In this document: positions 11,113 to 27,591 of the stretch, piece by piece
How positions within the stretch are numbered: the stretch's first letter is position 1
Layout: each line of letters opens with the position of its first letter
NCBI RefSeq assembly: GCF_036323395.1
Contig: NZ_AP028907.1
Coordinates: forward strand, 1,590,001-1,622,000
Reading direction: 5' to 3'
Origin: Pyrodictium abyssi
Lineage (GTDB): Archaea > Thermoproteota > Thermoprotei_A > Sulfolobales > Pyrodictiaceae
Length of the DNA: 32,000 nt
Position numbers and translations under genes: made by a program
Notes under the pieces: model-generated
What the model was told of the DNA's origin: nothing
The model's database searches: none
The model's input: the letters and a program-made list of their open reading frames with translations, nothing else

Positions 11113-11116
11113 GACC

Positions 11117-11719: not shown

Positions 11720-12288
11720 CCGAGTACCTGGCAGCGGCCGAGAAGTGCCGCCAGAGGTACCTCTCACTGATAGCCTCGTCGGCGGCGTGGACAGCGTCGC
11801 TGCTACTAGGCTACATGGCGGTGTCCCTGCTCGGCGCGGAGAGCCGCTGGGGCCCCCTGGCGCTGATAGCCGTCGTCGCGGCTAGCTACGCGGCCGCTTA
11901 CGGAGCGGTGTTCGGCCCCCCACGGCTACCCGGGCTGATAGCACGTAGGCTCCACGTCCTGGCTGTTGCCGCCGTGCTCGCGGCGGTGGTGGCGGCGGGG
12001 CCCAGCGGCAGGGGCAGTGATGGAGCCCTACTGCTCCTGCTCGCGCTCCCGACGTTGAAGAGGGCGGCGAGACTGGCCGGGACGAGGCGGGCAGAGCTAC
12101 TAGCCCGGGGCCTAGCGGTACCCCTACTGGTTGTCGCCCTGACTGGCGCTGTGCAGGGTAAGCTGCTAGGGTTCACGCCGTTCATAGTGGCTACAGCCGA
12201 GGCCTTCGTAGCCACGGTTGCTGCCAAGAGGATGGTTGTATGCGGGGACGAGGCGCTCAGAGCCCTCCAGGGGGCTGCAGAGAGCTAG
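11698..12288 (+). CDS. Ala-rich polytopic membrane protein
   Basis: ATG 11698 (MEAVRRVAEYL...) overlaps the end of the previous gene by 22 nt. Four to five hydrophobic spans; no family recognised. Confidence 0.55.
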   Translation: MEAVRRVAEYLAAAEKCRQRYLSLIASSAAWTASLLLGYMAVSLLGAESRWGPLALIAVVAASYAAAYGAVFGPPRLPGLIARRLHVLAVAAVLAAVVAAGPSGRGSDGALLLLLALPTLKRAARLAGTRRAELLARGLAVPLLVVALTGAVQGKLLGFTPFIVATAEAFVATVAAKRMVVCGDEALRALQGAAES

Positions 12289-12605
12289 ACAGGAAGAGGC
12301 TAAGGGAGCTGCTGCTAGAGCCGACTAGGCTACTAATAGTAGCTGTCCTCGCGGAGGGCTGCCGCCGGTTCATAGAGCTGTACAGGCTACTAGGCGTGTC
12401 GAAGGGAAGTCTCCACTTCCACCTAAGAGTCCTCGAAGAAAACTGCGTGGTGACGAGGAGCTACCGTCTCAGCAGCAGCGACCGGCCAGCCCTCATGGTC
12501 TGCCTCAGCAGCGATGCGCGCCGGGTGCTCGTAGAGGCGCTGGAAGAGGTCATAATGGAGCTCGCGGGTATACGGGAAAAGCTGCTAGAGAAAGAAACAG
12601 AGTGA
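12240..12605 (+). CDS. winged-helix (ArsR/TrmB-like) transcriptional regulator
   Basis: LLEPTRLLIVAVLAEGCRRFIELYRLLGVSKGSLHFHLRVLEENCVV is a typical wHTH recognition region. It is the last gene of the ATPase-membrane-membrane-HTH string. The start is uncertain, since ATG 12240 overlaps the previous gene by 49 nt. Confidence 0.65.
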   Translation: MRGRGAQSPPGGCRELDRKRLRELLLEPTRLLIVAVLAEGCRRFIELYRLLGVSKGSLHFHLRVLEENCVVTRSYRLSSSDRPALMVCLSSDARRVLVEALEEVIMELAGIREKLLEKETE

Positions 12606-12637
12606 CGCAGGGGGACGCTGGGGCCCTGCTGCGGCTG

Positions 12638-15130
12638 CTACCTCTCTATTATCACCTCGGCGGGCTCTATGTATGGCTGCCCGCCACCGCTTATCCTTAC
12701 GGTGCCTATTACTGTCACCTTCTCGCCGTAGCTCGGTATCGGGCCCCGGGTTGCGGCCACGTATATCCTGCCAGTGCCGTCGCTGAGCACCCAGTCGCTC
12801 CGCGTAACCGGCGGCGGCTCGTCTAACCCGCTCCAGCCGAGAGACATGCCCTCTATCTTGACCAGCCTGCCCTGGTAGCTCTGAGGGTCCTCGCGTATAT
12901 CGCGTATACTGGCCTCCACCGGCCTGGGAGCGTACGCTATGGGCTTCAGAGTCTCAGCGTCGAACGCCTTTATGCGCGGTAGGCTGCCCGGCGACACCGT
13001 GTATATGGCGTCGTCTATGTAGAGGCTCCTTGCAGCATCCCGGTGCTCCAGTATGGCTACGAGCCCTAGCTTTCCTGCAGCCTCGTCCAGCTTCACCACT
13101 GCGACTCCGCTCTTGGGCTTCACAACCTCCTTTGTAACAGTCTTGCCGTTCACCACGCCCGCGACATAGTAGCGTACAACGCCGCTGACGGGTACCAGGA
13201 TGTAGCCGTGCCGTGCATCCAGTGTGAAGGCGCGGTGACCCCACCTCGGGTCCAGCACGGGGCTCCAGGCGTAGCTCCAGCCCTGCTTGTCGCTGCCGAT
13301 GTACACCCGGCTCAGGACCTCTATCCGCGCGTCGCTGTGCACACGGTACAGGCTTATACGCAGACGCGGCCCCTCACGGCCCACCCCCACCAGTAGCGTC
13401 TCGTTCACAGGGTGTATGTACTCGTCGAAGCCCGGCGCCTCCAGGAACCCAAGCACCCTAGGGTTCTCCGGGTCACTGAGGTCTATAGCGAACAGCGGAT
13501 CCACCTGGCGGAACGTCACCAGGTACAGCCGGGGCCCCAGGAACCTTACCGCGTGGACACGCTCGTCCACCACCACCTCGTCGAGCCTACCAACCTCCTT
13601 CAGCGTGCCAGCGTCTAGGATGTATAGGCTAACCTTGGTGACCCGCCTCCCGTCCTTCTGGCTCTGCTCCTCCAGGACCACGCGCAGCATCCCGTTGTAC
13701 TCGTCGAGCATCCACTGCTTCCGGACAAGCCCGGGCACTACTGTGCTGGCTGCGGCCTCTAGCCGCGGCTCATGGCCTACAGCCACCCTTACGAGCAGGC
13801 TCTTGCCCAGGCTCCGGTAGAGCGTCCTCTCCACGCTCTCCAGCTTCTTCAACAAGTCCTCTATGCTGGCATCCAGCCTGTCGCCTAGGACGCCGTGGAG
13901 CTCCTCTACGCCGGGAAGCACCAGGTAGAGGCTACCGCTCGCAGGCATGTATATCGCAGAGGGCTGCGCCCCTATGAGCGTCAGCGTAGCAGCATTCCCC
14001 GTCTCGGTGCTGAACGCGGCTACTATGGTCTCGGTGGCCCCGGGGCCCACTATCACGGGCGGCTCGGGGGCTGGGATCACCCTGGAGGCTATCGCGTCCA
14101 CTATCATGGGCCGTACCAGGGACCCTGTAGAGGTGACCACTACTAGCGTGCCATTGTATAGCCTGGCGTCGTAGAAGCTTCCGGTGATGCTCCTAATCCA
14201 TAGAGGCTCTAGGCTAGGGCTCAGCGCTATTATCCATGTTCTCGGCTCGAGCGGCCAGGGGCTCCTTGCCTCCTCTGCCAGCACTATCAGCCTGCCGCCC
14301 TCCATGTAGAGCCCTCTCACGCGCACATAGTGCTGCACCGGCGCCACGGGCTCCATGTGCCCGTCTGACACCAGTACAAGCCTCTCGTCGCCGACGAACT
14401 CCATTATCTTCCTATACGCGTCGAATACGCCTGCTAGGCCCAGCTTGCCGGGCGGGTACGCCCGGTAGAGCTCAACTCTTCTCCCCGTTGCAACCGCTAT
14501 GTGGGTCCCATTGGTCTTGACTATGTCGGGCTCATCTACTCCAGCGACCTGCACGTTCGTAGCACTATACTCCGGCTGTGCCGGGCTGGACATAGCTGCT
14601 TCAGTCTGTACTTCGAGAGTTATAGGGGCTTGTGCCGCCAGTTGCTCGAGTGTAGCCTGTACAGCGGCTTCCAAGGCCCCTGGCTCCGCGACAGCTACGC
14701 CAAGCCGTATAGGGTAGACTGGGCCGGCCTTGCCAGCTTGGAGTAGGTACTGCCTAACGGCTTCTATGTCCTCCCAGGGTGCTCGGTAGCCGTACCCTGT
14801 CCACTCGAGGCTCACAGTCCTGCTAGCGTTAACCGGGCACGCGGCCATGCCGTTGGGGCCGCTCGGCGCGGCTATAGGGACCCCGCTGCCCGGCCGCTTT
14901 GTCGTGGTTTCGACGGCCCCTGTGGCCGTGCTATTTTGCTGCCCCGGAGTACAGGTAGGCACAGGGGCTGTTGCCACAGTGGTAGTATACGTTGTGCCTC
15001 CGGCCTCTGGCTGGGCGCTTTCGCCGCTTCTCCAGGCGCCAATAAGGTAGCCTGCGGCAAGGCTCACGGCTACGGCCGTCAGGAGGAGAACAGCTAGCCG
15101 TGCATCCGTCCTCATGCCCTTCTCCACCAT
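12638..15130 (-). CDS. secreted/anchored beta-propeller domain protein (COG4880 / Beta_propel family), 830 aa
   Basis: N-terminal signal anchor. Family blocks are YSATNVQVAGVDEPDIVKTNG and VHAVRFLGPRLYLVTFRQVDPLFAIDLSDPENPRVLGFLEAPGFDEYIHP. An extra C-terminal domain of ~100 aa (GRLVKIEGMSLGW...VTVIGTVRISGG) looks OB-like. Confidence 0.85.
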   Translation of the reverse strand: MVEKGMRTDARLAVLLLTAVAVSLAAGYLIGAWRSGESAQPEAGGTTYTTTVATAPVPTCTPGQQNSTATGAVETTTKRPGSGVPIAAPSGPNGMAACPVNASRTVSLEWTGYGYRAPWEDIEAVRQYLLQAGKAGPVYPIRLGVAVAEPGALEAAVQATLEQLAAQAPITLEVQTEAAMSSPAQPEYSATNVQVAGVDEPDIVKTNGTHIAVATGRRVELYRAYPPGKLGLAGVFDAYRKIMEFVGDERLVLVSDGHMEPVAPVQHYVRVRGLYMEGGRLIVLAEEARSPWPLEPRTWIIALSPSLEPLWIRSITGSFYDARLYNGTLVVVTSTGSLVRPMIVDAIASRVIPAPEPPVIVGPGATETIVAAFSTETGNAATLTLIGAQPSAIYMPASGSLYLVLPGVEELHGVLGDRLDASIEDLLKKLESVERTLYRSLGKSLLVRVAVGHEPRLEAAASTVVPGLVRKQWMLDEYNGMLRVVLEEQSQKDGRRVTKVSLYILDAGTLKEVGRLDEVVVDERVHAVRFLGPRLYLVTFRQVDPLFAIDLSDPENPRVLGFLEAPGFDEYIHPVNETLLVGVGREGPRLRISLYRVHSDARIEVLSRVYIGSDKQGWSYAWSPVLDPRWGHRAFTLDARHGYILVPVSGVVRYYVAGVVNGKTVTKEVVKPKSGVAVVKLDEAAGKLGLVAILEHRDAARSLYIDDAIYTVSPGSLPRIKAFDAETLKPIAYAPRPVEASIRDIREDPQSYQGRLVKIEGMSLGWSGLDEPPPVTRSDWVLSDGTGRIYVAATRGPIPSYGEKVTVIGTVRISGGGQPYIEPAEVIIER

Positions 15131-15155
15131 GGTTATGGGTGTCTAGGGGTGCTGG

Positions 15156-15178
15156 ATAGAGCTAGCCCCTAGCTCTAT
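15156..15178. promoter_or_regulatory. perfect palindrome ATAGAGCTAG-ccc-CTAGCTCTAT in the divergent promoter region
   Basis: Read directly: 10-bp arms with a 3-nt spacer, between the beta-propeller gene (start 15130, minus) and the 15245 gene (plus). A further CTAGGGG (15143..15149) is inverted relative to CCCCTAG inside it. Confidence 0.5.
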
Positions 15179-15244
15179 GTGTTCGAAACTCTAGCCTAAT
15201 ATCCCGGGCGCACGCCTCTCGGCCCCCGGGGCCTGGTATAGGCA

Positions 15245-16012
15245 ATGAAGCACATGGTGCTCGCAGTCCCCGCGGCTGTAGCCACGGCCATAGTGCTGAT
15301 CACGGTCACCGTATTCTCTACAGTAGCGGTGGCGGATACAGGCTACACGCCGGTGGCAGTTGCGGTGTACAACGACTCCGTGGCTAGTCCTGGGCAGCTA
15401 CAAGTCCTAGACACTATTGTATGCGGTAATTACACCATCGTAGTCTACGGCGTGGATACTGCGCCGCTACTATCGGTAGCCTACGCTAAGCCCGGCATGG
15501 ATGCTGGCGGCGCGCTGCAATGCCTTGCAGGGACGTCCAAAAAGCTTGGCAAGCAGCCTCTGGCCATAGCGGCGCCGTCTACAGCGACGCTGCAGGCAGC
15601 TAGGGCTCACGTAGAGGCTGTGACGGTGGCCGAGGCGCTGGTCACGGTGGTGAAAGCTGTGAACGTTGCAGGCACTGCTCAAGGGCAAAACGAGACAATA
15701 GTCCATGGAGATGCCGGCCAGCAGGCTGCTGCGTGTACCGAGCCCGCTAGAGAGATTGGCAAGGAGCCCACAGTAGCCCCTATAGTAGTTACTACTGTTG
15801 CCCCGTTGGAGCACGTAGGCAACGGTACATGTTACGCGGGAGAGGCGGTTGAGGTAGGACACTCTACGCTAGACGGTGCAGCGCAAACAGTCTATCAGAC
15901 CCAGTATAGCCGGGCAGGAGCCATGGGCGCGGCTGAAAGGACAGCCATCACCCTCCTTGCAGGAGCGCTAGCGGCGGCAGTGGTGGCGGCGCTATGGCGG
16001 GCAAGGGCCTAG
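15245..16012 (+). CDS. surface/secreted protein with N-terminal signal anchor and C-terminal TM anchor
   Basis: Hydrophobic N-terminus (LAVPAAVATAIVLITVTVF) and hydrophobic C-terminus (ITLLAGALAAAVVAALW). Several N-x-S/T sequons (NDS, NYT, NET, NGT). No family recognised. Confidence 0.65.
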   Translation: MKHMVLAVPAAVATAIVLITVTVFSTVAVADTGYTPVAVAVYNDSVASPGQLQVLDTIVCGNYTIVVYGVDTAPLLSVAYAKPGMDAGGALQCLAGTSKKLGKQPLAIAAPSTATLQAARAHVEAVTVAEALVTVVKAVNVAGTAQGQNETIVHGDAGQQAAACTEPAREIGKEPTVAPIVVTTVAPLEHVGNGTCYAGEAVEVGHSTLDGAAQTVYQTQYSRAGAMGAAERTAITLLAGALAAAVVAALWRARA

Positions 16013-16461
16013 AGGGTGGCGCCAGGGACCCGCTGCTAGAGCTTAGCGGCACCGCACTGCGAGCCTACATGCTCCTCCTCCGCAGCCGCCGGCCCATGGG
16101 CGTGAGGGAGCTCCAGCACCGCCTAGGCCTAAGGAGCCCGAGCACGGCCCGGCACCACCTCGAGCGGCTCGTAGAGCTCGGGCTCGCCCGCCGTGTAGAA
16201 GGAGGCTACGTAGCCGAGCCCCCGAAGACCGGCCTGCTACGCGCCTACATCATCGTGCGCGGCAGGCTCGTACCCCGGAGCCTAGCCACGGCAGCATTCA
16301 CCCTAGCCGCTACCCTGGCCTATGCAGTCCTACCCGGCAGCGACCCAGCAGCTGTAGCGGTGCTCTCCGTGGCCGCTGCGTTATCGTTGCTCGACGCGTA
16401 CACGGCCTACCGGGCAGCCGAGACGCTGAGAATAGACTCGGCACAGCAGCGGCCCAGCTAG
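15994..16461 (+). CDS. winged-helix DNA-binding domain fused to two C-terminal TM segments (membrane-associated regulator)
   Basis: ALRAYMLLLRSRRPMGVRELQHRLGLRSPSTARHHLERLVELGLARR is a wHTH, followed by hydrophobic spans. The ATG overlaps the upstream gene end by 19 nt. Confidence 0.7.
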   Translation: MAGKGLEGGARDPLLELSGTALRAYMLLLRSRRPMGVRELQHRLGLRSPSTARHHLERLVELGLARRVEGGYVAEPPKTGLLRAYIIVRGRLVPRSLATAAFTLAATLAYAVLPGSDPAAVAVLSVAAALSLLDAYTAYRAAETLRIDSAQQRPS

Positions 16462-16580
16462 CCACAAGCCGCCCCAGGCTAGCTAGTTGCCCCCGGGGTG
16501 GTCTAGCTAATCCGCCCGGTGGGCGTCAGCCCCTACACCGCGGCAGCGGAATGCTCCTCCGGAGTATTGGCTGGCCTGGT

Positions 16581-16775
16581 CTAGCCTGCCGTGGCTGCCG
16601 CGTGGAGCGCTACGACGAGCATGGCGGTGATAATGAGCATGACTATGCCCGCGAAGGTCTCTACTCCGCGGAGGAGGTCGTCGTTCTCCCTGCTGCACCT
16701 CTTAAGCAGCTTTGCGCTGCTGTAGAGGGCGAGGGCTATGGCAGCAAGCAGCCCGGGGACCACGAGTAGGGACAA
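16581..16775 (-). CDS. possible small 2-TM membrane protein (64 aa)
   Basis: TTG start, with two hydrophobic spans separated by a charged loop (KLLKRCSRENDDLLRG). It overlaps alternative-frame ORFs and has no family support. Confidence 0.35.
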   Translation of the reverse strand: MSLLVVPGLLAAIALALYSSAKLLKRCSRENDDLLRGVETFAGIVMLIITAMLVVALHAAATAG

Positions 16776-16964: not shown

Positions 16965-18461
16965 TTGCTGGCTCCTATACGCTGGTGCAGCTCTGTGCGC
17001 GGCTCACTCGCTGTGGGCAAAGCGGGGGACGGCGTGGACGCTGTCGCGTACGTCGCCGGCCGCGAGGCTCTCGACTGGCTCCGCGCCGTGGACCCCCTCG
17101 CCGGCCACGTTATCGACCTAGGCGATTTCCGTGCGGGGCTAGAGGAGGCCCTAGTCCTCTACCGCATGGGCGGCGCCCCCCGCCTGATACTCTCGGGGGC
17201 TGGCGGCGAGGACGAGTGGCTGGGGCACGCTGAGAGGCTCCGCGTAGCCGTCGCGGCCGCGGTGAGGCAGGCACGCCGCCTCAAGCAGGTCAAGAGGCTC
17301 GGCATAGTCGTCGAGAAGGGGCTCCTAGAGAAGGCCGCAGAGGAGGGCTCCGGGGAGGCCTGGGCGCTGGAGCAGGCACTAGTAGCAGCAGACATGGCCA
17401 ACTACGCCTATAGCCTCCACGGCCGGGGCGAGCGCCCCCACGTCCTCGCGGAGATACGTCTAGAGCCCGGCAACGAGAAGGCCCTGGAGCAGGCTAGGGC
17501 GGTCGCGGAGGGTGTGAGGCTGGCCAGGGACCTGGCGAACGCCCCCGCCAACATAATGGGGCCTGACGGCCTGGAGCAGGAGGCGCGGGAGCTAGCCCGC
17601 CGGCTAGGCCTCGGGATAAGGGTGCTACACCGGGGCGAGCTAGAGAGCCTCGGCATGGGCGGGATACTAGCAGTCGGCGAGGGCAGCGACTCGGAGCCCC
17701 GGCTGATAATACTCGAGTACCATGGCGGAGGCAAGAAGGTCGCTGTGATAGGCAAGGCGGTAGCATTCGACGCCGGCGGCCTCGACCTCAAGCCCCCGCA
17801 GGCAATGCTCGAGATGAAGTACGACAAGAGCGGCGGCGCGGCAGCAATGGGCATAGTAGCTGCAGCGGCCAGGCTCCGCCTCCCCGTAGACCTGGTAGCC
17901 CTCATCCCCGCTGTCGAGAACATGCCTAGCGGCCGCGCCTACAAGCCCCTAGACGTAATACGGATGTACAACGGCACCACGGTAGAGATAGGCAACACCG
18001 ACGCAGAGGGCAGGCTCATAATGGCCGACGCTCTGGCCTACGCCGCGGAGCGCTACAAGCCAGACATAATGATAGACCTCGCCACCCTCACCGGCGCAGC
18101 AGTAGTAGCCCTAGGCAACCACGCAGCCGCCCTCATGTCCAACAACGAGGAGCTAGCATCAAAGCTAGAGCGGGCAGCGTGGCGCGCCGGCGAGCCGGCC
18201 TGGAGGCTCCCCACGTGGCCTGTCTACGAGAAGCAGCTAGAGAGCAAGACCGCGGACACGAGCAACGTCGGCGGCCGCTGGGCCGGCGCCATCACGGCCG
18301 CAAAGTTCCTCGAGAAGTTCGTAGACGGCCGGCCCTGGGCCCACCTAGACATAGCGGGCGTAGCCTGGGTCCAGGACAAGGGGCCCTGGAAGCCATACTA
18401 CCCAGGCGGCGCCACCGGCTGGGGCGTACGCACAGTAGTAGAGCTCCTCCGCAGCCTCTAA
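16965..18461 (+). CDS. pepA: leucyl aminopeptidase, peptidase family M17
   Basis: M17 signature NTDAEGRLIMADAL and the metal/active-site block GKAVAFDAGGLDLKP. The start is uncertain; GTG 16995 gives a more typical N-terminus. Confidence 0.9.
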   Translation: MLAPIRWCSSVRGSLAVGKAGDGVDAVAYVAGREALDWLRAVDPLAGHVIDLGDFRAGLEEALVLYRMGGAPRLILSGAGGEDEWLGHAERLRVAVAAAVRQARRLKQVKRLGIVVEKGLLEKAAEEGSGEAWALEQALVAADMANYAYSLHGRGERPHVLAEIRLEPGNEKALEQARAVAEGVRLARDLANAPANIMGPDGLEQEARELARRLGLGIRVLHRGELESLGMGGILAVGEGSDSEPRLIILEYHGGGKKVAVIGKAVAFDAGGLDLKPPQAMLEMKYDKSGGAAAMGIVAAAARLRLPVDLVALIPAVENMPSGRAYKPLDVIRMYNGTTVEIGNTDAEGRLIMADALAYAAERYKPDIMIDLATLTGAAVVALGNHAAALMSNNEELASKLERAAWRAGEPAWRLPTWPVYEKQLESKTADTSNVGGRWAGAITAAKFLEKFVDGRPWAHLDIAGVAWVQDKGPWKPYYPGGATGWGVRTVVELLRSL

Positions 18462-18501
18462 CGCCCCAGCCCCCTTCCTCGGACCCGGCCCCCTCCCCGG
18501 G

Positions 18502-18633
18502 CTAGACACTGAACTCTAGGTAGTGGTAGCTGGTTCCCTCCTCTCTTATGCCCCATGTTGGCACTACTATGTCGTACACCCTTACGCTCGGATGCACCGC
18601 GCCGGCGGCGCCGTAGACTACGAACCACTGCAC
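18502..18633 (-). CDS. possible 43-aa ORF (VQWFVVYGAAGAVHPSVRVYDIVVPTWGIREEGTSYHYLEFSV)
   Basis: Below the track's size cut-off and found by hand. GTG start directly after an in-frame TGA, with protein-like composition, convergent with pepA. No other support. Confidence 0.2.
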   Translation of the reverse strand: MQWFVVYGAAGAVHPSVRVYDIVVPTWGIREEGTSYHYLEFSV

Positions 18634-18675
18634 TCGTCACAACAGATGAGCTACACGGAGAGAAATGGGGCATAA
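18546..18675. repeat. 11-bp perfect inverted repeat TTATGCCCCAT / ATGGGGCATAA flanking 108 nt
   Basis: Read directly at 18546..18556 and 18665..18675, immediately left of the GC-to-AT transition. Confidence 0.6.
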
Positions 18676-18871
18676 AGTGGAACGTACACGGAGACAGGGA
18701 GAGGAGAATAGAAGCTGTATTCCTAGTAATATTCTCCCTAGTATCTTTCTAAGCGAACTATATACTTGACAATGTAGAATTAGTTATAGATATTTGATTT
18801 TATATAATCAAAGATTAGTAGTTAGTAAATCTACACAAAATACTCTAATGTCTAATGCTTCTTCGAAGCTC

Positions 18872-19090
18872 CTACGTAATATATATATATGGCAGCAGTA
18901 GGTAGTATACGGTGAAACAATGCACGCCCAAGTAGCTATCCAAATAAACAAGCCAATAAATAAGCCAAATACAGAGAACATGTATATTATAGCTCCATTT
19001 CAGAGGCCCATACGTATAGCTCCAGTTATAGGCAAGGGTCCATGTGACTGCTAAAGGGGGTTGAAAAGGTGAAGTATAATAGCACTGCAA
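18872..19090 (-). CDS. alternative reading: 72-aa aromatic-rich hydrophobic ORF (possibly a gene fragment)
   Basis: Track ORF with a TTG start and an unusual Tyr/Trp-rich composition. No convincing promoter spacing. It overlaps the plus-strand 44-codon ORF completely. Confidence 0.2.
   Translation of the reverse strand: MQCYYTSPFQPPLAVTWTLAYNWSYTYGPLKWSYNIHVLCIWLIYWLVYLDSYLGVHCFTVYYLLLPYIYIT
18877..18890 (+). promoter_or_regulatory. (TA)n TATA-like element upstream of the 44-codon ORF
   Basis: taatatatatatat ends 30 nt before ATG 18920. GGTGA (18911..18915) lies 4 nt before the ATG as an SD-like element. Confidence 0.3.
18920..19054 (+). CDS. candidate 44-aa peptide MHAQVAIQINKPINKPNTENMYIIAPFQRPIRIAPVIGKGPCDC
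   Basis: Hand-found ORF on the same strand as the radical SAM gene and 235 nt upstream of it. TATA-like and SD-like signals precede it, and a T-run (ctttttat) follows about 40 nt downstream. It has internal repeats (INKP x2, IAP x2) and a C-terminal C-x-C. It is mutually exclusive with the minus ORF 18872..19090. Confidence 0.3.
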   Translation: MHAQVAIQINKPINKPNTENMYIIAPFQRPIRIAPVIGKGPCDC

Positions 19091-19288
19091 AAATCTTTTT
19101 ATCCTTAAAGAAATAGTTGAACCAAACTTTAACTTGCATCTATTCGTCCTAATTAGGCGTGATGCTTCTTGGAATCAATTCCTAATAAGTAAAGCTTTAG
19201 GTTCTTTACTTAAAAGCGTTGCAACGAGTAACTATGCAAATGTAAATAGTACGAGCTGAACAAAGAGCTATTAATAGAGCTTCAAAAG

Positions 19289-20248
19289 ATGGGATTAGTT
19301 GACCTATATGGGAACACAATGCTTATACCTAATTATAAGTATCGAAGTGGAAGACTACTAAGTTACATACTACTAGAGGTTACTCAGAGCTGTAATCTAC
19401 GTTGTCGCCATTGTTATATTAACGCTGCATTTAATAAAAGGAACAATCTTGAGTTGAATGAAATTAAGAAGGTTCTTAGAGAAGCTGCGGACTTGGGTGT
19501 AGTAGGTATAGGTATAACTGGAGGCGAACCCTTCATTCGTAAAGATATCCACGAAATTTTAAAATATGCAGCTGATCTAGGGCTGTATGTACAGATATTT
19601 ACGAATGGAACATTGTTAACAAAATACGATATACAAATGTTAGCCAAACTTGGTGAGTATCTGGATCGTATGAGAGTGAGTCTCTATGGAACGCGGGATA
19701 TCCACGATTATGTTACTGGGGTCAGAGGTTCATATGACCTAACAGTAAGAAATATAAAACTTATGCTTAGAGAAAATCTGCCAGTAGCTATTAACTTTAC
19801 TATAACCAAACCTATTATGGATAAACTTGATGAAGCGTTTGCTAGCATTAAGAGTACTGGTGTTGAAGACATAGTCTATGGTATTATATTTCCTCAAGGA
19901 CGTGCATCGGAGAATAATGACCTATTGTTTGAATTTAGTGATCTAATCCATTTATATAAAAAACTTTATAAAATGATAGTAAAAGACAATATAATTAACT
20001 ATAGCAATATAATGTTAGATATAAACAATATATCTAGAAATATGGAAAAAATGAAAATATTATCAAAAGAATATAGAGTACCAGTTGAAGGCCTTATATG
20101 GCTCGGAAGTTGTGGTGCAGGTGCCTCATTTCTTTATATTAATACGAATGGTGATGTTTATCCATGCAATAAGATATATAGTATTAAATTAGGAAATATA
20201 AAGCAGATCTTGCGGAGCTTAGCCTCCTCGCGCGCAATGGTCTCGTAG
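19289..20248 (+). pseudogene. radical SAM / SPASM-domain maturase, 3'-truncated inside the SPASM motif
   Basis: The CxxxCxxC cluster is CNLRCRHC in LLEVTQSCNLRCRHCY, with a GGEP motif (GITGGEPF). The first SPASM element C-x12-G-x4-C is present (CGAGASFLYINTNGDVYPC), but the following CxxCx5Cx3C is missing. After GNIKQ the frame runs into GC-rich antisense DNA (ILRSLASSRAMVS*). Confidence 0.8.
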
Positions 20249-20346
20249 ATGGCTCTGCGCACCACCTCGCTCCAGTTGATGTGCTTCAGCTTATCCATCT
20301 TCTCCTTGAGCTTCCTGTCTATACGGAAGCTGACAACTACGCTCAA
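20158..20346 (-). pseudogene. VapB-like ribbon-helix-helix antitoxin, 3'-truncated at the island junction
   Basis: TTG 20346 gives SVVVSFRIDRKLKEKMDKLKHINWSEVVRRAIYETIAREEAKLRK, a paralog of the intact vapB at 28797 (VVSVRVPKELKEKMRKYDIDWAEEIRKFLEKR). It then reads into AT-rich DNA (ICFIFPNLILYILLHG*). No cognate PIN gene lies downstream. Confidence 0.65.
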
Positions 20347-20479
20347 CAGTAGGCCCCGGTCCTGGTGATGTAGCACGAGCCCGTAATATCTGTGCTACGC
20401 TAGAGGCCCGGGTCCGAAGCACGATACCCCGATATAGCGCCCTAGCCGGGTGTATAGAGCTACACGGGGCAGTAGAGTA

Positions 20480-20950
20480 GTGGACGCGTACACCCTGGCA
20501 GTAATCCTCATACTAGTGGGCGTAGCCCTGGACCTTGCAGAGATCGTGGTCCCCGGTTTCTTCCTAGCAGTCCCGGGCACGGCCGCCATAATCTACGGTG
20601 TGCTCTTGGCAATGTTCCCCGGGGTGGTCGAAGAGCCCTGGGGCCCCTGGCTGCTAGCGGGTCTCGCGGCGCCGCTGACCCTCGCCACGGTGGCCCTCTA
20701 CAAGCGGCTCTCGCCGCCCCAGAAGCCGGTGACAGCGAGCTACGAGGGCCTAGTAGGGCTCACCGGTGTCGTCGTGGAGACCGTTACCGGGGATGAGCCG
20801 CGGGGCCGGGTGCGCGTCGCAGGAGACGAGTGGCCCGCGGTAAGCGCCTCCGGCGGCGAGATCCCGCCTGGTACGCGTGTGAGGGTCGTCGGCGTCGAGG
20901 GCGTGCACCTCATAGTGGAGCCGCTACATGGCACGGAGGAGAAACAATAA
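20480..20950 (+). CDS. NfeD-family membrane protein (short form, C-terminal OB domain)
   Basis: Hydrophobic N-terminal half plus GLTGVVVETVTGDEPRGRVRVAGDEWPAVSASGGEIPPGTRVRVVGVEGVHLIVEP, the typical NfeD C-terminus. It sits directly upstream of a stomatin gene. GTG 20480 has a TATA-like gtatagag about 27 nt upstream; the track maximum start is 20450. Confidence 0.8.
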   Translation: MDAYTLAVILILVGVALDLAEIVVPGFFLAVPGTAAIIYGVLLAMFPGVVEEPWGPWLLAGLAAPLTLATVALYKRLSPPQKPVTASYEGLVGLTGVVVETVTGDEPRGRVRVAGDEWPAVSASGGEIPPGTRVRVVGVEGVHLIVEPLHGTEEKQ

Positions 20951-22134
20951 GTGTTTGTCGAGCTAGCCTCTACCCGGTACTAGCGTGGGGTGGATTCCCC
21001 CTGGCGCAGCCTCTGCTCGCCCTAGCAGCCCTAGTCCTCGGCACAGCCCTCTCAGTGCTGGTCGCGGCCGGGGTCCGTGTCATACGGCCCTGGGAGGTGG
21101 GCATCTACATCAGGCTCGGCAGGTTCATAGGCATCCTGCGGCCTGGGCTGCACTGGGTCCCGCCCTTCATCAGCAGCGTCCACCGGATAGACCTGCGTAC
21201 ACAGGTCGTGGACATACCGCGCCAGGAGGTCATAACACGGGACAACTCCCCGGTGGTCGTCGACGCTATAGTCTACTTCCGGGTCGTAGACCCCAAGAAG
21301 GCGTTCTTCGAGGTCGAGGACTACCGCATGGCCGTGGTAGCGCTAGCCCAGACAACGCTCCGAAGCGTCATAGGCGACATGGAGCTCGACGAGATACTCT
21401 ACAACCGCGCCGCGATAAACGCCCGGCTCCGCCGGATACTAGACGAGGCCACAGACAAGTGGGGCGTCCGCGTAGAGAGCGTCGAGATACGAGAGGTGGA
21501 GCCCAGCCCCACCGTCAAGAAGGCCATGGAGGAGCAGACAGCCGCCGAGAGGGAGCGGCGCGCAGCGATACTGCGAGCCGACGGAGAGAGGAGGGCAGCC
21601 ATACTCCAGGCTGAGGGCGAGAAGCAGGCAATGATACTACGCGCAGAAGGCGAGAGAGCCAGCAGAGTGCTGCGCGCCGAGGGCGAGCGAATGGCCCTCA
21701 TCCTACGGGCCCTCGGCGAGGCCCAGAGGCTGAGGGTACTCACAGCAGCCTCCGCCGCGATGACGCCGCAGGCGCTCAGCATACTAGCGATGGAGACGCT
21801 CCAGGAGCTAGGCCGCGGCAAGGCCACCAAGATAGTAGTGCCCTACGAGGTCACGAGGCTCCTAGAGACGCTCAGCAGCCACATAGCAGGAGCAGCCGAG
21901 AAGCCACAGCCGGGCAGGACAGACGTCGAGGCCCTCCAGGAGGCGCTCCAGAGGCTAGAACAGCTACTAGGCCCCCTGCCCAGGAGCGAGGAGCTAATGA
22001 GCGAGGTAAAACGCCTACAGGAGGAAGCCGAGCAGCTACGCCGCCAGAGCCCCGAGAAGCTGGAAGAACTCCTCAAGCCGCCCAAAGAGCTAGCAGAACA
22101 ACCAGCCGAGAGCCAGGAGAAACAAGAGAGGTAG
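20830..22134 (+). CDS. SPFH/band-7 protein (prokaryotic stomatin) with long charged C-terminal tail
   Basis: VIRPWEVGIYIRLGRFIGILRPGLHWVPPFI...DLRTQVVDIPRQEVITRDNSPVVVDAIVYFRVVDP is a canonical stomatin core, followed by AEGE-type repeats. The start is unresolved. The only in-frame starts are GTG 20830 (121-nt overlap with nfeD) and GTG 21055 (which would delete the N-terminal TM). Confidence 0.85.
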   Translation: MARGKRLRRRDPAWYACEGRRRRGRAPHSGAATWHGGETISVCRASLYPVLAWGGFPLAQPLLALAALVLGTALSVLVAAGVRVIRPWEVGIYIRLGRFIGILRPGLHWVPPFISSVHRIDLRTQVVDIPRQEVITRDNSPVVVDAIVYFRVVDPKKAFFEVEDYRMAVVALAQTTLRSVIGDMELDEILYNRAAINARLRRILDEATDKWGVRVESVEIREVEPSPTVKKAMEEQTAAERERRAAILRADGERRAAILQAEGEKQAMILRAEGERASRVLRAEGERMALILRALGEAQRLRVLTAASAAMTPQALSILAMETLQELGRGKATKIVVPYEVTRLLETLSSHIAGAAEKPQPGRTDVEALQEALQRLEQLLGPLPRSEELMSEVKRLQEEAEQLRRQSPEKLEELLKPPKELAEQPAESQEKQER

Positions 22135-22226
22135 CCCCTCCGCACGGCCCATGGCCCCAGCCGCTCTTTTCCCGCCTCCCCCAGCTCCAGAGGCTCTCCC
22201 GGCGCCACGCTGGTGCCACAGCAGCC

Positions 22227-22637
22227 ATGAAGAGGACACTACTCCTCCGAGCCGCGGCAGCCATAGCCATGGTCCTCGTGGCCCTCGACGCACTCTCAGT
22301 CTACTTCCTGCTGCTAAACCCCGAAGGCTACTGGGACCACGAGAAGCTCGACGGCGCTAAGGCCATCCGCAGGCTGCTCCCCGTCTTCGCCTCGCCCCTC
22401 GCAGCAGAAGCGGCAGCGCTCCACCTACTCCGCCGAGGCAGAGCAGCCCCCGTCACACCACTACTAGCCCTAGCATCAGTCCTACACTATTATTCGGGAC
22501 TCCACATCTGCGCCGACTGCCAGATGTCGCCAGGCGAGGCAGCAGAAGCAACCCTAGCAGCCTTGGCTGTGATCTTGGCTCTGGCTTATGCAGTTTCTAG
22601 GAGACCATATCCTCTCCCTGCCCGTTGTATGTATTGA
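22227..22637 (+). CDS. hypothetical membrane protein (136 aa)
   Basis: ATG start and three to four hydrophobic spans. No family recognised. Confidence 0.55.
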   Translation: MKRTLLLRAAAAIAMVLVALDALSVYFLLLNPEGYWDHEKLDGAKAIRRLLPVFASPLAAEAAALHLLRRGRAAPVTPLLALASVLHYYSGLHICADCQMSPGEAAEATLAALAVILALAYAVSRRPYPLPARCMY

Positions 22638-22713
22638 CGGTCGAAGCGGGCGTGAAGGCGTTCAACCTCATATAGTAGCCTCTTGCATGTCATGTTGCGG
22701 GTGCTAGGCTACT

Positions 22714-23982
22714 ATGCTCCGGGCCTTTAGGCTTGCTAGGGCGCTGCTACGGGGAGGGATACGCGTAAGCGAGTGCGGGTGTGTCGTCAAGGAGGTGGAC
22801 GCTGTTGTCGAGGCGCGTGGCGTTGTGCTCAGTGTGAGCGTAGAGGTGTCAGTCGATGCTCACGGGGAGTGTTGTCTGTGGCTGAACCCTGGGCTCCGCG
22901 TGGGGAGCGTATCCGGGCTAGAGGACTATACAGTCAAATACAGCAGGGACCCCGAGGTAGGGCTGGCCCGGCTCCTAAGGCTCCGCTCTAGGAGCTGCAG
23001 CGCCTCCATCGGGGCCTCCTACGAGGGGAGCGTTGCTCCTCTCATGCGGGGCTTCTGGAGCAGCGGGGAGGACCGGCACGTACTCCGGCCGCAGACGCTA
23101 TGGTACCCCTACACGGTCTCCTGCAGCTGCCTCCTATGGCCGCTTGTGCGGGGGCGCCACGCGCGGGCCAGGCTCGAGGCGAGGCACGACGGCACGCATG
23201 CAGCCTTGTCCTCCCTCAGGCTGAGGGAGGATGGTGGCAGCTATAGCGTGTGGGAGGGCACTGGTTGTAGCCCCGTGGACCTGGTCGTGCTGAGGCGCAG
23301 GGCGGAGAAGAGGCTAGCCCTCGAGGGCAAGGAAGTGGTAGTGGTGAGCGAGACAGCGGGCGGCGTCGAGGAGGCGGTGAGGGGGCTCCGGGAGGCCATA
23401 GCGTTCTACCGTGGTCTGGGATTTCCCGACCCCCAGGAGGAGCTGTACGTGGCGGTCATGGGAGGTAGCGGTGGCTTCCGCAACGACTACCTACTATCGC
23501 TCGACACCGTTCACCTGGAGAACAGCGCCACGGCGCTGGCTAACGCGCTCCACGAGTACGCCCACACCTGGCTAGGCTCCCTGCTTAAGCCGCGCAGCCC
23601 CGAGGACCTCTGGATGTTCGAGGCCCTACCAGACTATCTGGCCGCGGCTGGCCTAGACGCTAGCGGCCTCAACGAGCAGGCCAGGAGAGTCCTCCGAGAA
23701 GCCGTAGCGGAGGCCCGCAGGGCGCTGAGGAGCCCGCTCTACACCCCGCCGCACAGGATACACATGCCCCTCACGAGGAGAGGGATCGCCACCCACCGGT
23801 CGGTAGGCGTAGCAGTCCTAGACGAGATAGCCAGCAGGATAGGGCGCAGAGAGCTCCTCCAGCAGCTAGCCAGCTACATAGCCAGGAAGCTGGAGACGGA
23901 CAGAACGTTCAGCTGGAGAGAATTCACGGCCAGTCTCGGAGAAGACGTACGCAGCGTCCTAGAGAAGTACCGGCTGCTCTAG
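22714..23982 (+). CDS. gluzincin metallopeptidase, M1-like catalytic domain
   Basis: Exact HEXXH-X18-E arrangement: HEYAH followed by 18 residues and then E in WMFEALPDY. The ~260-aa N-terminal beta-rich region resembles the M1 N-domain. Confidence 0.75.
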   Translation: MLRAFRLARALLRGGIRVSECGCVVKEVDAVVEARGVVLSVSVEVSVDAHGECCLWLNPGLRVGSVSGLEDYTVKYSRDPEVGLARLLRLRSRSCSASIGASYEGSVAPLMRGFWSSGEDRHVLRPQTLWYPYTVSCSCLLWPLVRGRHARARLEARHDGTHAALSSLRLREDGGSYSVWEGTGCSPVDLVVLRRRAEKRLALEGKEVVVVSETAGGVEEAVRGLREAIAFYRGLGFPDPQEELYVAVMGGSGGFRNDYLLSLDTVHLENSATALANALHEYAHTWLGSLLKPRSPEDLWMFEALPDYLAAAGLDASGLNEQARRVLREAVAEARRALRSPLYTPPHRIHMPLTRRGIATHRSVGVAVLDEIASRIGRRELLQQLASYIARKLETDRTFSWREFTASLGEDVRSVLEKYRLL

Positions 23983-24006
23983 CCACTGCGTGCCCCGTCC
24001 CACGGG

Positions 24007-24588
24007 CTAGGAGCTGGTTGCTGCCTTCAGCCTCTCTAGCGCCTCCTGGTGCTCTCTACTCCACAGCCTCTTCTCCTCTAGCCGGGGCTTCACCTTTTCC
24101 TCGGCTATCTCGGCTAGCCTCGCTAGCAGGTACACTATGTCCTTTCTAGCCTCCTCCTCGCCGGGGTACTTGCTCAGCTCCCCCGCCGGGTCTGGGCCGT
24201 GGTACTGGTAGTCGTGTAGCAGGAGCGCTACCGCGGTGTAGGCGGAGAAGCCGGTGATGCCAGCGTCCTCCAGTAGCTGGCTAAGCGCTTTGAGCCTACC
24301 AGTCGGGGCCCGGGGTATCCCGACCTCCTCTAGCCATCTCCTCTGCTCCTCGTTCTCCAGCTTCTCGGCTATCCTGTCCCGCTCGAGGGCCGGCAGCGCC
24401 CCGGTTAGCGCCCGCCACGCCTGGAGCGCCTTACCCGCAGCACTCCTCGTAAAGCCCCGGCCGAGGAACCTCAGCGCCAGCAAAGCCTCAAGCAGCGCCT
24501 CCAGAGCACGAGCAGCGGCATAGCCCACCAGGTCCCGCCGGGGCCGGGGTAGCGGCCGCTCTAGAGCCTCTGTAGCTGTAGGCAGCAC
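24007..24588 (-). CDS. PaREP1-family protein (HEPN-related archaeal family)
   Basis: RFLGRGFTRSAAGKALQAWRALTGAL and LLLHDYQYHGPDPAG match my memory of the PaREP1 conserved blocks (AAGKAFQAWKA, LHxYQYxG). The family call comes from memory only. Confidence 0.6.
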   Translation of the reverse strand: MLPTATEALERPLPRPRRDLVGYAAARALEALLEALLALRFLGRGFTRSAAGKALQAWRALTGALPALERDRIAEKLENEEQRRWLEEVGIPRAPTGRLKALSQLLEDAGITGFSAYTAVALLLHDYQYHGPDPAGELSKYPGEEEARKDIVYLLARLAEIAEEKVKPRLEEKRLWSREHQEALERLKAATSS

Positions 24589-24729
24589 TGCTGCTCCCTA
24601 ACTGGGTTCCCCTGGGCGGTTCCCTCTTATTCCCCACCTATGGCGCGTGAACACTGCCCTCGGGGCTCCTTCGGCTACAGGGCAGCACGACATAGTCTGG
24701 TTTTCAACACTTAATGCGTAACCCAGATC

Positions 24730-25485
24730 TCATATTCTTCTTATTGTATATTCCTTGTTTTTAAGTACATACGGGCTTTTCAAGAACTGTCGAGGCGACA
24801 GAGCCCTCCTAGGCTTATATGCAAGTATAAGGTGCTTCAAAGGGTTCCCACTAGGCTGCTTAATCACGTCTACATCCTCGAAGAATATCCAAGATAGCGC
24901 TGCGAGCCTCGCTACACTCCAGTAGTAGAGGTTGATAACCGCCGTCCTGGACGGGTTCCTGAGATCAATAACTCTCCTCCTGCATGTGCCCCTCACCGGA
25001 TCATAGCCCTTGAACACGTCGAGCACCATTCTCGCACTGCACTCGTCCTCGACAAACATTATATCTGCACAACCCCTCGTCAAGAACATGCGGAACCTGT
25101 CTGCCTCTTGCATGACCAGTAAACCCCTGGGGCTGAGAACGTGGCTTACCGATGCTAGCAGAGTGTTCATGCTCCAGGGGTCAAAGTGTGGACTAGAGGA
25201 GCCCCACATGAGCGCCAGGTCGTACTCATCATTGACTTTGTGGAGTACCTTGGCGTCAACGATGTGTATTGTGGGTTTCACAGCGAGTTCGCCGCTTATC
25301 CACTCTCTAGCCTTGAGCAATACGTCTTGCCTGACATCGACGAGTGTCAGCTCTACCCGGTAGCCCTTCTCTATCAATACTTTCGAGAACGCATAGCCTG
25401 CTATACCTACACCGCTACACACGTCTACTACCCGCACTGGGTCCCTACCTTTAAGCGTCTCAGCGGCGAAGGGGTGATGTAGCAC
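24730..25485 (-). CDS. class I SAM-dependent methyltransferase (5' end possibly frameshifted)
   Basis: Motif I VVDVCSGVGIAG, acidic post-I LVDVRQD and later LSPRGLLVMQE. GTG 25485 leaves only 18 residues before motif I. The same frame stays open and coding-like for 37 more codons upstream without a start. Confidence 0.75.
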   Translation of the reverse strand: MLHHPFAAETLKGRDPVRVVDVCSGVGIAGYAFSKVLIEKGYRVELTLVDVRQDVLLKAREWISGELAVKPTIHIVDAKVLHKVNDEYDLALMWGSSSPHFDPWSMNTLLASVSHVLSPRGLLVMQEADRFRMFLTRGCADIMFVEDECSARMVLDVFKGYDPVRGTCRRRVIDLRNPSRTAVINLYYWSVARLAALSWIFFEDVDVIKQPSGNPLKHLILAYKPRRALSPRQFLKSPYVLKNKEYTIRRI

Positions 25486-25634
25486 CTCTTTGGCTGCTTC
25501 TATGGCTTCCCGGAGGCGTTCATTAAAGCAGGGTGTGCCGGGAGTCTCGGACCATGGAAATACCTGGTAGAGCTCTTCAAGCCCGGATAATGGGTATCAC
25601 CATGTCTAGGTCGAATACCGTTAAACTATTAAAC

Positions 25635-25645
25635 TATATATTTTA
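25635..25645 (-). promoter_or_regulatory. TATA-like element (minus strand taaaatatatag) upstream of out-of-frame ATG 25603
   Basis: Plus strand reads ctatatatttta. The centre is about 37 nt upstream of ATG 25603, which would be the natural start of the methyltransferase if one nucleotide were removed. Confidence 0.3.
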
Positions 25646-25862
25646 TGACGCGTTAGTACTTTATGGGGGTCTTGAAGCGGGAGGCGGAAGGAGTAGAGCC
25701 TGCAAGGGAGGTATAGCGCTCCCACAATGTACTTAAGGTAGCTATACTAGTAGGATGGCTTGGGTCCAATGAAGCCAAGAGACACGTAGCTAGCTCTAAG
25801 ACCCGTAGTCGTTAGAGTCTTGTACACATGGTTGCGGGTTAATGGTAGTGCGCATCTCGGGT

Positions 25863-26573
25863 TCACGAAGCTAGCCTTCTAGATACTACGGCGGATAGTA
25901 TGGCTGCGTAAGCTAGGGCTGCTGCTAGCAGCCAGTGGAGGGGCTCGTCGTAGACAAGCACGCGCCGTATCATCTCGGCGGCGTAGGTTGTAGGGGCGAT
26001 GAACGCTACGGGCTTTAGGGCGTCTGGCAGCGCGTCTAGAGGGTAGTAGACCGGCGGGAGCAGTATAAGTGCTGACGAAAGGAACAGGGTTATAGAGTCT
26101 ATATGCACGGGGCTCTCGACGTACAGCGCTATCGTGAATGCGAGTAGGCTAGTCAGCAGCCACGCAAAGAGTATAGCAAGGGCCAGTACTGCTAACCTGT
26201 AGGCGTTAAAGCCTGCTACAGTAGAGAGAGCTAGGGAGAACACGGTGATAGCGGGTAGTGAGCCTAGTAGCCTCGACAACGCTAGCCCTAGCATGTACTC
26301 GTGTAAGCCGACCGGCGATGCTACAATAATGTCGTGGAACCCTATGAGCCGGAACAGTACAAGCAGCCTCGCAATACCTATACACGAGCCTGCTGCGACA
26401 GACACAAGAGCGCCTACAAGGACATGTAAGAGCGCACTCTTACCTGCTAGCATGTACGTAGTCAGCACCACGCCGACGGGAGTCACCAACTGTGCTGCCA
26501 TCCATAAGGGGGAGCGGAGTAGAGGCGCAGTGGTAAGGTAGGCTACCGCTATGACGGGCTTTAGCCTAGCCAT
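25863..26573 (-). CDS. ABC-2 type transporter permease
   Basis: Six hydrophobic spans. ATG 26573 overlaps the ATPase stop in ATGGCTAG (translational coupling); the track maximum start is GTG 26582. Confidence 0.75.
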   Translation of the reverse strand: MARLKPVIAVAYLTTAPLLRSPLWMAAQLVTPVGVVLTTYMLAGKSALLHVLVGALVSVAAGSCIGIARLLVLFRLIGFHDIIVASPVGLHEYMLGLALSRLLGSLPAITVFSLALSTVAGFNAYRLAVLALAILFAWLLTSLLAFTIALYVESPVHIDSITLFLSSALILLPPVYYPLDALPDALKPVAFIAPTTYAAEMIRRVLVYDEPLHWLLAAALAYAAILSAVVSRRLAS

Positions 26574-27465
26574 GCACGCCACCGGTCAGCACTGCAAAGA
26601 CGTCTTCAAGGTCAATCGGGGACACACGGAACGATGCTTCCCGACTTGCCAGTAGCTCAACAATCTCCTCTAGCATGCCTCTGCTTGGGATGTACACTAG
26701 CAGTCTATCCCCAAGCCTGGCAACCCTAACGCGAGTACCATAGGCTGCTAGTATATGCTCGAGCACCTCCCTGTGGCCCTCTACCACGAGTTTATAGCGG
26801 AAAGGGATCTCCTGCTTCAACTCCTCTACAGAGCCTATAGCCCTGATAACACCCCGCTCTAGCAGGGCTACTCTCGTAGAGATGTTCTCCGCCTCGACCC
26901 CCAGGTTAGTGGTCACGAACAAGAAGCTGCTCGTCTTCATACGCAGTAATAGCTCCCATGTACTCCTCCGGGCGTACGGGTCAAGGCCGAGCGTCGGCTC
27001 GTCAAGAAAGATGAGAGCTGCATGGGTAGCCATAGCTGCCGCGAGGAGGACTCTCCTCCTGAGCCCGCCTGACAGTAGCATACATGGCTTACTCCTATAC
27101 TCCCACAAGTCAAGGTCCTTGAGGACTTCTTCTGTCCTCATCTTGGCCTCCGAGAAGCTCCAGCCCCGTGCTACGAGAAGCCAGTAGACAAACTCCCAGG
27201 GAGTAACGTCACCCAGGGGCCTACCCTCCTGAGGCATAATAGCTATCTCTCTTCTAATTCTCTTCGCGTCCGATAGAGGGTAGCCGAGCACTTCTACATA
27301 GCCCTTACTCGGCTTAAGCTGGGTAGATAGTATCCTTACCAGTGTCGTCTTGCCAGCCCCGTTCGGGCCCATGAGGCAGAAGATGTTATCATTACTTCTC
27401 ACCTCAAGGTTTATGCCTCTTAAAGCGTATGTACCGCCAGGATACGTAAAATGCAAGTCTTCCAC
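26566..27465 (-). CDS. ABC transporter ATP-binding protein (exporter type)
   Basis: Walker A GPNGAGKTT, signature LSGGLRRRV, Walker B LIFLDEPTLGLD, with a GTG start. Confidence 0.9.
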   Translation of the reverse strand: MEDLHFTYPGGTYALRGINLEVRSNDNIFCLMGPNGAGKTTLVRILSTQLKPSKGYVEVLGYPLSDAKRIRREIAIMPQEGRPLGDVTPWEFVYWLLVARGWSFSEAKMRTEEVLKDLDLWEYRSKPCMLLSGGLRRRVLLAAAMATHAALIFLDEPTLGLDPYARRSTWELLLRMKTSSFLFVTTNLGVEAENISTRVALLERGVIRAIGSVEELKQEIPFRYKLVVEGHREVLEHILAAYGTRVRVARLGDRLLVYIPSRGMLEEIVELLASREASFRVSPIDLEDVFAVLTGGVHG

Positions 27466-27591
27466 ATAGACTACAGAGCTACGAGCAATAGCACTCCACC
27501 ACTACTAAAGATTATGTAATGGGGGTATAGCGGTGATAAAAGTTACCGCCTCCTCCTGGGCCTAGGGCATCCTTCAGGGGATATGGCCTCT

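Follow-up and report, generated by a model that had tools for sequence, protein, structure and literature searches.

What took the place of the toxin-antitoxin operon next to the aminopeptidase gene pepA in Pyrodictium abyssi AV2, and how did it get there? The question is raised by an AT-rich block in a 32-kb stretch of the chromosome of this archaeon (the window; all positions below are those of the window unless another contig is named). The source is an isolate genome and not a metagenome bin, assembled as one contig with a G+C content of 63.5% (GCA_036323395.1; PMC13140500). The original prediction, made from the sequence of the window, described a block of foreign codon style from about 18.69 to 20.21 kb that truncates two convergent genes at one junction, and read it as a recombination scar or as a chimeric joint. 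Our analysis indicates that the block is very probably a genuine chromosomal scar, left by recombination of an integrase-independent (illegitimate) kind. The sister loci lack the block, its outer joints can be placed within a few nucleotides, its pieces are truncated, and no mobility machinery was found. The features of the region are summarized in Table 1. A literature search for a genome paper on P. abyssi found nothing on the sequencing platform or on islands.

The G+C content drops from about 0.63 to 0.335 across 18707-20206. In intervals of 400 nt it is 0.28-0.38 inside 18.7-20.2 kb, compared with a mean of 0.617 (standard deviation 0.050) in the rest of the window, so that the block mean lies 5.4 standard deviations below the rest and the two distributions do not overlap (minimum outside, 0.475). 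In a two-state maximum-likelihood scan the composition changed at 18706 and at 20211. The G+C content at third codon positions (GC3) is 0.255 in the open reading frame (ORF) of the radical SAM gene inside the block, and 0.74-0.80 in pepA, nfeD, the band-7 gene and the retained part of vapB. The predicted sharp block with its own codon style was thus confirmed, and the proposed interval-by-interval check of composition found no outside interval near the block's values. About 75% of the AT-rich stretch is recognisable gene remnant (the radical SAM gene and a short peptide ORF), and about 350 nt are non-coding, with a G+C content of 0.15-0.38 and TATA-like runs. A perfect 8-bp inverted repeat (GGAGAATA ... 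TATTCTCC; 19-nt loop) is located at the composition switch (18703-18737).

Five sister loci, identified through homologues of VapB, were available for comparison: those of two strains of Pyrodictium delaneyi (Su06 and Hulk) and those on three Pyrodictium-like metagenome contigs (L026, L032 and L033). In P. delaneyi the order is band-7, nfeD, vapB (82 amino acids), vapC (PIN domain, 142 amino acids) and pepA; the window has exactly this order except that the block stands in the place of vapBC. The arrangement vapB-vapC-pepA is also found on the three metagenome contigs. By blastn, 16996-18460 (to 18517 for L026 and L033) and 20211-22561 are collinear with the sister loci at 82-94% identity, and no match was obtained between these two flanks. 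The pepA DNA is 82-94% identical to that of P. delaneyi and the three contigs up to the stop codon (82% for L026, 94% for L032 and 86% for L033), and the nfeD/band-7 region is 86% identical to that of P. delaneyi. The host has lost 507 bp, consisting of 113 nt of vapB, with its last 37 codons, and of vapC minus its last 16 nt, and has gained 1693 bp (18518-20210) of unrelated sequence. Synteny therefore backs the scar that had been predicted, in the form of a replacement, and the suggested look at the pepA-nfeD interval of relatives found an intact vapB-vapC pair in P. delaneyi. Minus-strand frames to the left of the block contain neither the VapB C-terminus nor any VapC sequence except these last 16 nt, which rules out a simple insertion. 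Since L032 keeps vapBC beside the pepA gene closest to that of the window, the replacement would be younger than that split; together with the unameliorated composition, this suggests that the event is young.

A separate scan of genome contigs with PepA returned Pyrodictiaceae metagenome-assembled genomes (MAGs) as best matches, at 70% identity and with synteny not conserved, and returned neither P. abyssi nor close species. When L026, L032 and L033 were compared over the parts corresponding to 17535-18517 and 20211-20400, the vapB 5' segment (about 180-190 nt) was identical among the three despite their differing pepA genes. In L032 and L033 an ADP-ribosylglycohydrolase neighbourhood precedes vapB, in place of nfeD-band7. 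Because an identical vapB segment accompanies divergent pepA genes, the pepA 3' flank looks like a recombination-prone locus across Pyrodictium.

The joints were located from both sides. On the right, all five sister sequences align with the host DNA from 20211 (TGCGGAGC...) rightwards, and the radical SAM ORF stays homologous to its nearest relative only as far as 20200-20206 (...GNIKQ, with GNI at 20200), so that the right joint (J3) lies within CAGATCT. It had been predicted to within about 10 nt around AGATCT, and the present data place it within about 7-10 nt. The palindrome itself is not significant, and it is uninformative as a cloning signature given that six-base palindromes occur about 19 times per kb in the window. 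On the left, the alignment with L026 and L033 extends beyond the pepA stop codon, across the spacer and as far as the end of vapC, and the joint (J1) is at 18517/18518, about 180 nt to the left of the composition switch. The left border predicted at about 18.69-18.71 kb is therefore correct as a composition switch but not as the joint with host DNA. Both outer joints lie inside reading frames.

At the left joint the vapC tail on the minus strand reads ...GAG TTC AGT GTC TAG, encoding EFSV and the stop codon as in L026 and L033 (the VapC C-terminus in P. delaneyi is SEFQV). At the right joint the retained part of vapB continues for 45 of 82 codons, to ...EEAKLR, and is followed by 16-17 codons of antisense AT-rich DNA, in agreement with the predicted loss of its C-terminus. 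This part is 91-98% identical to the 82-residue VapB of P. delaneyi and of Pyrodictium MAGs. The chimeric vapB ORF is annotated as PABY_17510 (BES82184.1; 20158-20346, minus strand), and its open frame was listed as 20158-20376. The module thus resembles archaeal VapBC type II modules (VapB of the ribbon-helix-helix (RHH) family RHH_12 with a PIN-domain VapC) in the retained 45 codons and in its P. delaneyi-like genomic position, but differs from them in that the antitoxin is not full-length, having lost its toxin-binding C-terminal half, and the PIN toxin gene is deleted but for 16 nt. VapB is predicted to be cut to its DNA-binding RHH half plus a nonsense tail, leaving vapBC, as judged from its sequence, a dead module.

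The 1693 bp of new DNA are not uniform. The low-GC foreign character that had been predicted holds for the AT-rich part, but the insert also holds a nucleoside phosphorylase fragment in GC-rich style, starting 180 nt further to the left. This fragment continues in frame into the vapC tail, with an in-frame stop just upstream, and its GC3 of 0.72 corresponds to a Pyrodictium-like codon style. In a phmmer search of 1.8 billion representatives it matched (E = 1e-12, identity up to 73%) residues of about 97-136 of proteins of about 255 amino acids, some of them named purine nucleoside phosphorylase/uridine phosphorylase of Thermoprotei, and it matched the hidden Markov model (HMM) of the family with E = 4e-22. 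No protein in a set of 5.8 billion, P. abyssi included, had even three 5-mers in common with the fragment. On this ground, and on that of the best identity of 73%, we rejected the idea that it had recently been copied from a P. abyssi gene. In the adjoining stretch up to the composition switch, tblastn aligned TDELHGEKW with SDELYGDEW; this stretch is likely, but unproven, to be a second, inverted phosphorylase piece.

The AT-rich part contains a radical SAM gene with the core motif CxxxCxxC in the form CNLRCRHC. Its nearest relative is a protein of 443 amino acids (P0002; 41% identity). By tblastn with P0002, residues 8-47 correspond to 19098-19214 and residues 57-368 to 19256-20200, in two different frames, no match was found past residue 368 of 443, and a plausible GTG start at 19069 is in the third frame. 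Three reading frames across the gene imply two frameshifts, one in an A5 run at about 19089-19093 and the other at about 19250-19257. The match to the SPASM profile covers positions 1-36 of 67 in the window copy and 1-67 in P0002; the CxxCx5Cx3C of SPASM is absent and five of seven SPASM cysteines are missing, as the original prediction had noted of the last cysteines. The annotated gene PABY_17500 (BES82183.1 / WP_338253019.1; 19289-20248, plus strand), to which our ORF is 100% identical, reads 42 nt into host antisense DNA and converges with PABY_17510 in a 91-nt overlap (20158-20248). In GenBank and RefSeq both are annotated as intact coding sequences, PABY_17500 for a radical SAM protein in RefSeq and a hypothetical protein in GenBank, and PABY_17510 for a hypothetical protein. 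All matches to NCBIfam are far under the cut-offs (best 126-158 bits, cut-offs 400-650; AhbD-like with 126 bits and a cut-off of 500 for the window copy, ScmE with 158 bits and a cut-off of 400 for P0002), so that no named maturase family can be assigned. The predicted gene calls of pepA, nfeD, vapB and radical SAM/SPASM were all reproduced with Pfam. Given the two frameshifts, the five lost SPASM cysteines, the missing toxin gene and the truncated antitoxin, a functional content of the block is improbable.

Signatures of mobility were sought throughout the window. ARAGORN found no tRNA or tmRNA genes and Rfam gave no matches, and Pfam matches of 33 window ORFs (most plausible ORFs of at least 100 amino acids) included no integrase, transposase or recombinase. 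No direct repeats pair the joints, those spanning them being of 10-11 nt, non-collinear and at chance level. Likewise, no inverted repeats pair 18518 with 20210, the best outer pair (18479-18494/20402-20417) lying in host DNA. The predicted absence of an integrase, a tRNA target and flanking direct repeats thus stands, and there is no target-site duplication either; the host lost 507 bp instead. Since blastn of the block detected no DNA similarity in phage, virus and plasmid collections, and the motif of the short peptide described below did not occur in viral contigs, a viral or plasmid origin is unsupported. The islet resembles integrase-less genomic islets and acquired pseudogene remnants in its deviant composition, its absence from sister genomes, its truncated genes and its variable locus adjoining a toxin-antitoxin module. 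It differs in measuring only 1.7 kb, in combining DNA of two or more sources whose GC styles are opposite, in having both outer joints in reading frames, in its host, a hyperthermophile with 63.5% G+C, and in lacking attachment (att) sites, a tRNA gene and a recombinase.

Short, unrelated, truncated fragments standing side by side, a net host loss together with a gain, and joints in reading frames argue for illegitimate joining. The ancestral state would have been a vapB-vapC operon in the pepA 3' flank, with transcription running in the direction of pepA. Non-homologous patchwork DNA would then have taken the place of the lost segment of this operon in the lineage of P. abyssi. The patchwork is made up of the phosphorylase fragment, possibly two in opposite orientations, and of about 1.5 kb of a low-GC cassette with an AT-rich promoter region, the short ORF ending in IGKGPCDC and the 5' 80% of the radical SAM gene. 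The remainder of that gene and a downstream transporter-like gene of the cassette would not have been included. Fragment capture at a double-strand break, by end joining or of a microhomology type, may have been the mechanism; equally possible would be a larger insertion followed by a deletion from inside the radical SAM gene into vapB.

The extreme composition switch and the abrupt joints, in a single assembly whose chimeric ORFs have no independent sighting and with a BglII/GATC site at the right joint, might instead reflect an assembly or cloning chimera, in which 1.5-1.7 kb of a contaminating low-GC organism was stitched into the P. abyssi contig. This would require two to three false joints in a finished single-contig isolate genome, yet the two host flanks are collinear and share one orientation, and a spurious insertion would not delete exactly the vapBC segment. 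The phosphorylase fragment has host-like GC-rich codons and is fused to the vapC tail, the radical SAM gene is decayed as in resident junk DNA, and the sole relative of the cassette is found within the same archaeal family. With 6-bp palindromes as frequent as they are, AGATCT adds nothing, and we consider a chimera very improbable. Still less credible, to the point of being negligible, is the reading of the AT-rich stretch as native and functional, for instance as a replication origin, a DNA-unwinding element or a regulatory region. The non-coding part with its low G+C content and TATA-like runs would fit such an element, but the stretch is absent from all sister loci, about three quarters of it are the remnant of the radical SAM gene and the peptide ORF, no orc1/cdc6 gene is nearby among the Pfam-scanned ORFs of the window, and repeated elements resembling origin recognition boxes were not found.

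A more serious alternative, although still an unlikely one, is that homologous recombination in the conserved pepA and nfeD/vapB flanks brought in the ready-made mosaic from a different strain of Pyrodictium, in which case the border between the phosphorylase and the AT-rich cassette would be an old gene neighbourhood of an earlier donor. The vapBC module hardly differs among L026, L032 and L033, whose pepA genes are 82-94% identical to that of the window, which points to allele exchange at the locus. The phosphorylase fragment is Pyrodictium-like in GC3 yet has no matching P. abyssi protein, and immediately ahead of the cassette the same strand carries what may be the 3' end of a phosphorylase gene. 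However, the mosaic is known from no other genome, and the flanks beside the joints show no obvious step in identity to the relatives.

Several points weigh against a scar formed by illegitimate recombination in P. abyssi itself. There is only one P. abyssi assembly, and the joints have no independent confirmation: the chimeric proteins occur on no other contig among 15 billion catalogued proteins, and exact-protein look-ups of the radical SAM ORF, of NfeD and of a further protein (P0001) returned no encoding contig. No donor was found, the nearest relative of the radical SAM gene being 41% identical. The frameshift in the A5 run could be a sequencing error, and the match of the second phosphorylase piece is weak (E = 0.007). 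The mechanism is unreadable from the joints, as scoring microhomology would need the donor sequence. The illegitimate scar would be an ordinary and familiar kind of event, a horizontal-transfer scar or integrase-less acquired islet in a variable toxin-antitoxin locus, in an unusually clean form. Somewhat notable are the GC3 of 0.26 in such a GC-rich hyperthermophile, the base-level resolution obtained from sister genomes and the patchwork content.

A related cassette exists elsewhere. The gene for P0002 occurs on one contig of the assembly GCA_013540595.1 and on two further contigs from hot-spring/fumarole metagenomes. GCA_013540595.1 is the Pyrodictiaceae MAG 'Candidatus Pyroantarcticum pellizari' DIMAG01, with a G+C content of 48.3% (PMC13140500). 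Its cassette (contig L021, 9933-12543) consists of a peptide ORF, the radical SAM gene and a gene for a multi-pass membrane protein of 404 amino acids with a sub-threshold match to the major facilitator superfamily (MFS), and the gene order and spacing are as in the window. It too is low in G+C (0.34-0.39, compared with about 0.48-0.50). The closest relative is therefore another low-GC cassette within Pyrodictiaceae, and not one from the low-GC donors that had been suggested (Staphylothermus, Sulfolobales or a virus). The two cassettes are alike in their radical SAM proteins, in peptides that both end in IGKGxCDC and in forming low-GC islands in Pyrodictiaceae. They differ in that the DIMAG01 copy has an intact radical SAM gene of 443 codons with full SPASM and its downstream genes, and the flanking genes are unrelated. 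In DIMAG01 only the last 83 codons are left of the short-chain dehydrogenase gene just upstream of the cassette (L021, 9322-9573), and on a metagenome contig with the same cassette this gene is full, with 248 amino acids (L022, 8827-9573). To judge from these sequences, the truncation apparently marks another breakpoint, at the left border of the cassette.

Upstream of the radical SAM genes, the sole nucleotide similarity between the window and L021 is a stretch of 52 nt with 73% identity. In both genomes this is the 3' end of a short ORF whose stop codon precedes the radical SAM start by 11-14 nt. The ORF in the window ends in PVIGKGPCDC, and at the matching position DIMAG01 (L021, 9933-9989) encodes MKRHLLIDLIIGKGRCDC followed by a stop codon. 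Of the six differences that separate the window from L021 in the last nine peptide codons, five fall at third positions. An ORF ending in IGKGxCDC beside a radical SAM gene is conserved in two lineages only, those of the window and of L021. When metagenomes were scanned for the peptide motif in degenerate form, 18 matches were obtained, none of them beside a radical SAM gene and all attributable to chance, and more distant radical SAM homologues have other gene contexts and no peptide.

A precursor peptide followed by a radical SAM/SPASM enzyme and a transporter is the classic layout of gene clusters for ribosomally synthesized and post-translationally modified peptides (RiPPs). The window copy resembles known RiPP maturases (the sactisynthases AlbA, SkfB and StsB, the ranthipeptide enzyme PapB, ScmE and WgkB) in its CxxxCxxC core and the start of SPASM; P0002 shares with them an N-terminal extension of about 90 amino acids. 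The radical SAM gene is immediately preceded by a short Cys-containing ORF, and the intact relative has a gene resembling membrane transporters downstream. Unlike these enzymes, the window copy is a pseudogene in no named family, and its peptide is known from two lineages only. The N-terminal extension of P0002 aligned partially with PqqD-bearing homologues, and a PqqD-like RiPP recognition element could not be shown in it. We regard a RiPP modification system as a lead and not as a result. It is possible, but we would put it forward only tentatively, that the AT-rich block is a dead copy of an unrecognised archaeal RiPP system that moves between Pyrodictiaceae as a low-GC cassette. In such a system, a peptide of about 18-24 amino acids with the C-terminal core IGKGxCDC would be modified by the dedicated radical SAM/SPASM enzyme, for example with thioether cross-links of Cys-Asp or Cys-Cys type, and would be exported by the MFS-like protein.

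Other parts of the window also depart from the sister loci. A second insertion of 7.3 kb lies at 22562-29829, where P. delaneyi is continuous (L025, 7797 to 7760). Its G+C content is 0.57, with stretches near 0.50, and it encodes an M1-peptidase-like protein, a PaREP1 protein, a methyltransferase, an ABC-2 transporter pair and an RHH/PIN vapBC pair (28797-29021 and 29015-29440), with no integrase. To the left of about 16.6 kb synteny ends: 1-16586, which encodes peptide and ABC transporters, ThiD/ThiN and a beta-propeller protein, has no DNA counterpart in the 8 kb beyond pepA of P. delaneyi. Note that the true start of pepA is probably downstream of 16965, the position given in Table 1.

Table 1. 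Features of the scar and its flanks in the P. abyssi window
Feature	Position	Strand	Evidence or remark
pepA, M17 leucyl aminopeptidase, intact, left flank	16965..18461	+	Pfam Peptidase_M17, E 6e-118
Host intergenic spacer, pepA to former vapC stop	18462..18501		Aligns with L026 and L033 spacers
vapC last 16 nt (EFSV and stop), sole remnant of PIN toxin gene	18502..18517	-	blastn against L026 and L033
Purine/uridine nucleoside phosphorylase, internal fragment, about 40 codons	18518..18636	-	Pfam PNP_UDP_1, positions 61-107 of 233
Possible second phosphorylase piece, C-terminal region, inverted	18624..18707	+	HMM positions 211-238, E 0.007, six frames
AT-rich block proper	18707..20206		G+C 0.335
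Short ORF MYIIAPFQRPIRIAPVIGKGPCDC and stop, candidate precursor peptide	18980..19054	+	Alternative start 18920
Radical SAM/SPASM maturase-like pseudogene	19069..20206	+	Pfam Radical_SAM (PF04055), E 6e-26
Right joint J3 (CAGATCT)	20204..20210		Radical SAM remnant meets vapB codon 45/46
vapB 5' 45 codons (RHH_12 antitoxin)	20211..20346	-	VapB homologues; weak Pfam RHH match
nfeD and band-7/stomatin, intact, right flank	20450..22134	+	Pfam NfeD, Band_7

As a practical consequence, PABY_17500 and PABY_17510 are chimeric read-throughs, for which pseudogene annotation is warranted. The most reusable by-product is the intact peptide/radical SAM/transporter cassette in another member of Pyrodictiaceae; if the RiPP assignment is true, the version in 'Candidatus Pyroantarcticum pellizari' would make a natural product of a hyperthermophile. 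P. abyssi grows above 100 °C, and the scar is a clean, base-resolved case of foreign DNA fixed without an integrase and destroying a toxin-antitoxin module. To our knowledge, most Thermoproteota lack classical Ku-dependent end joining, and the scar is therefore useful for studying illegitimate recombination in this phylum.

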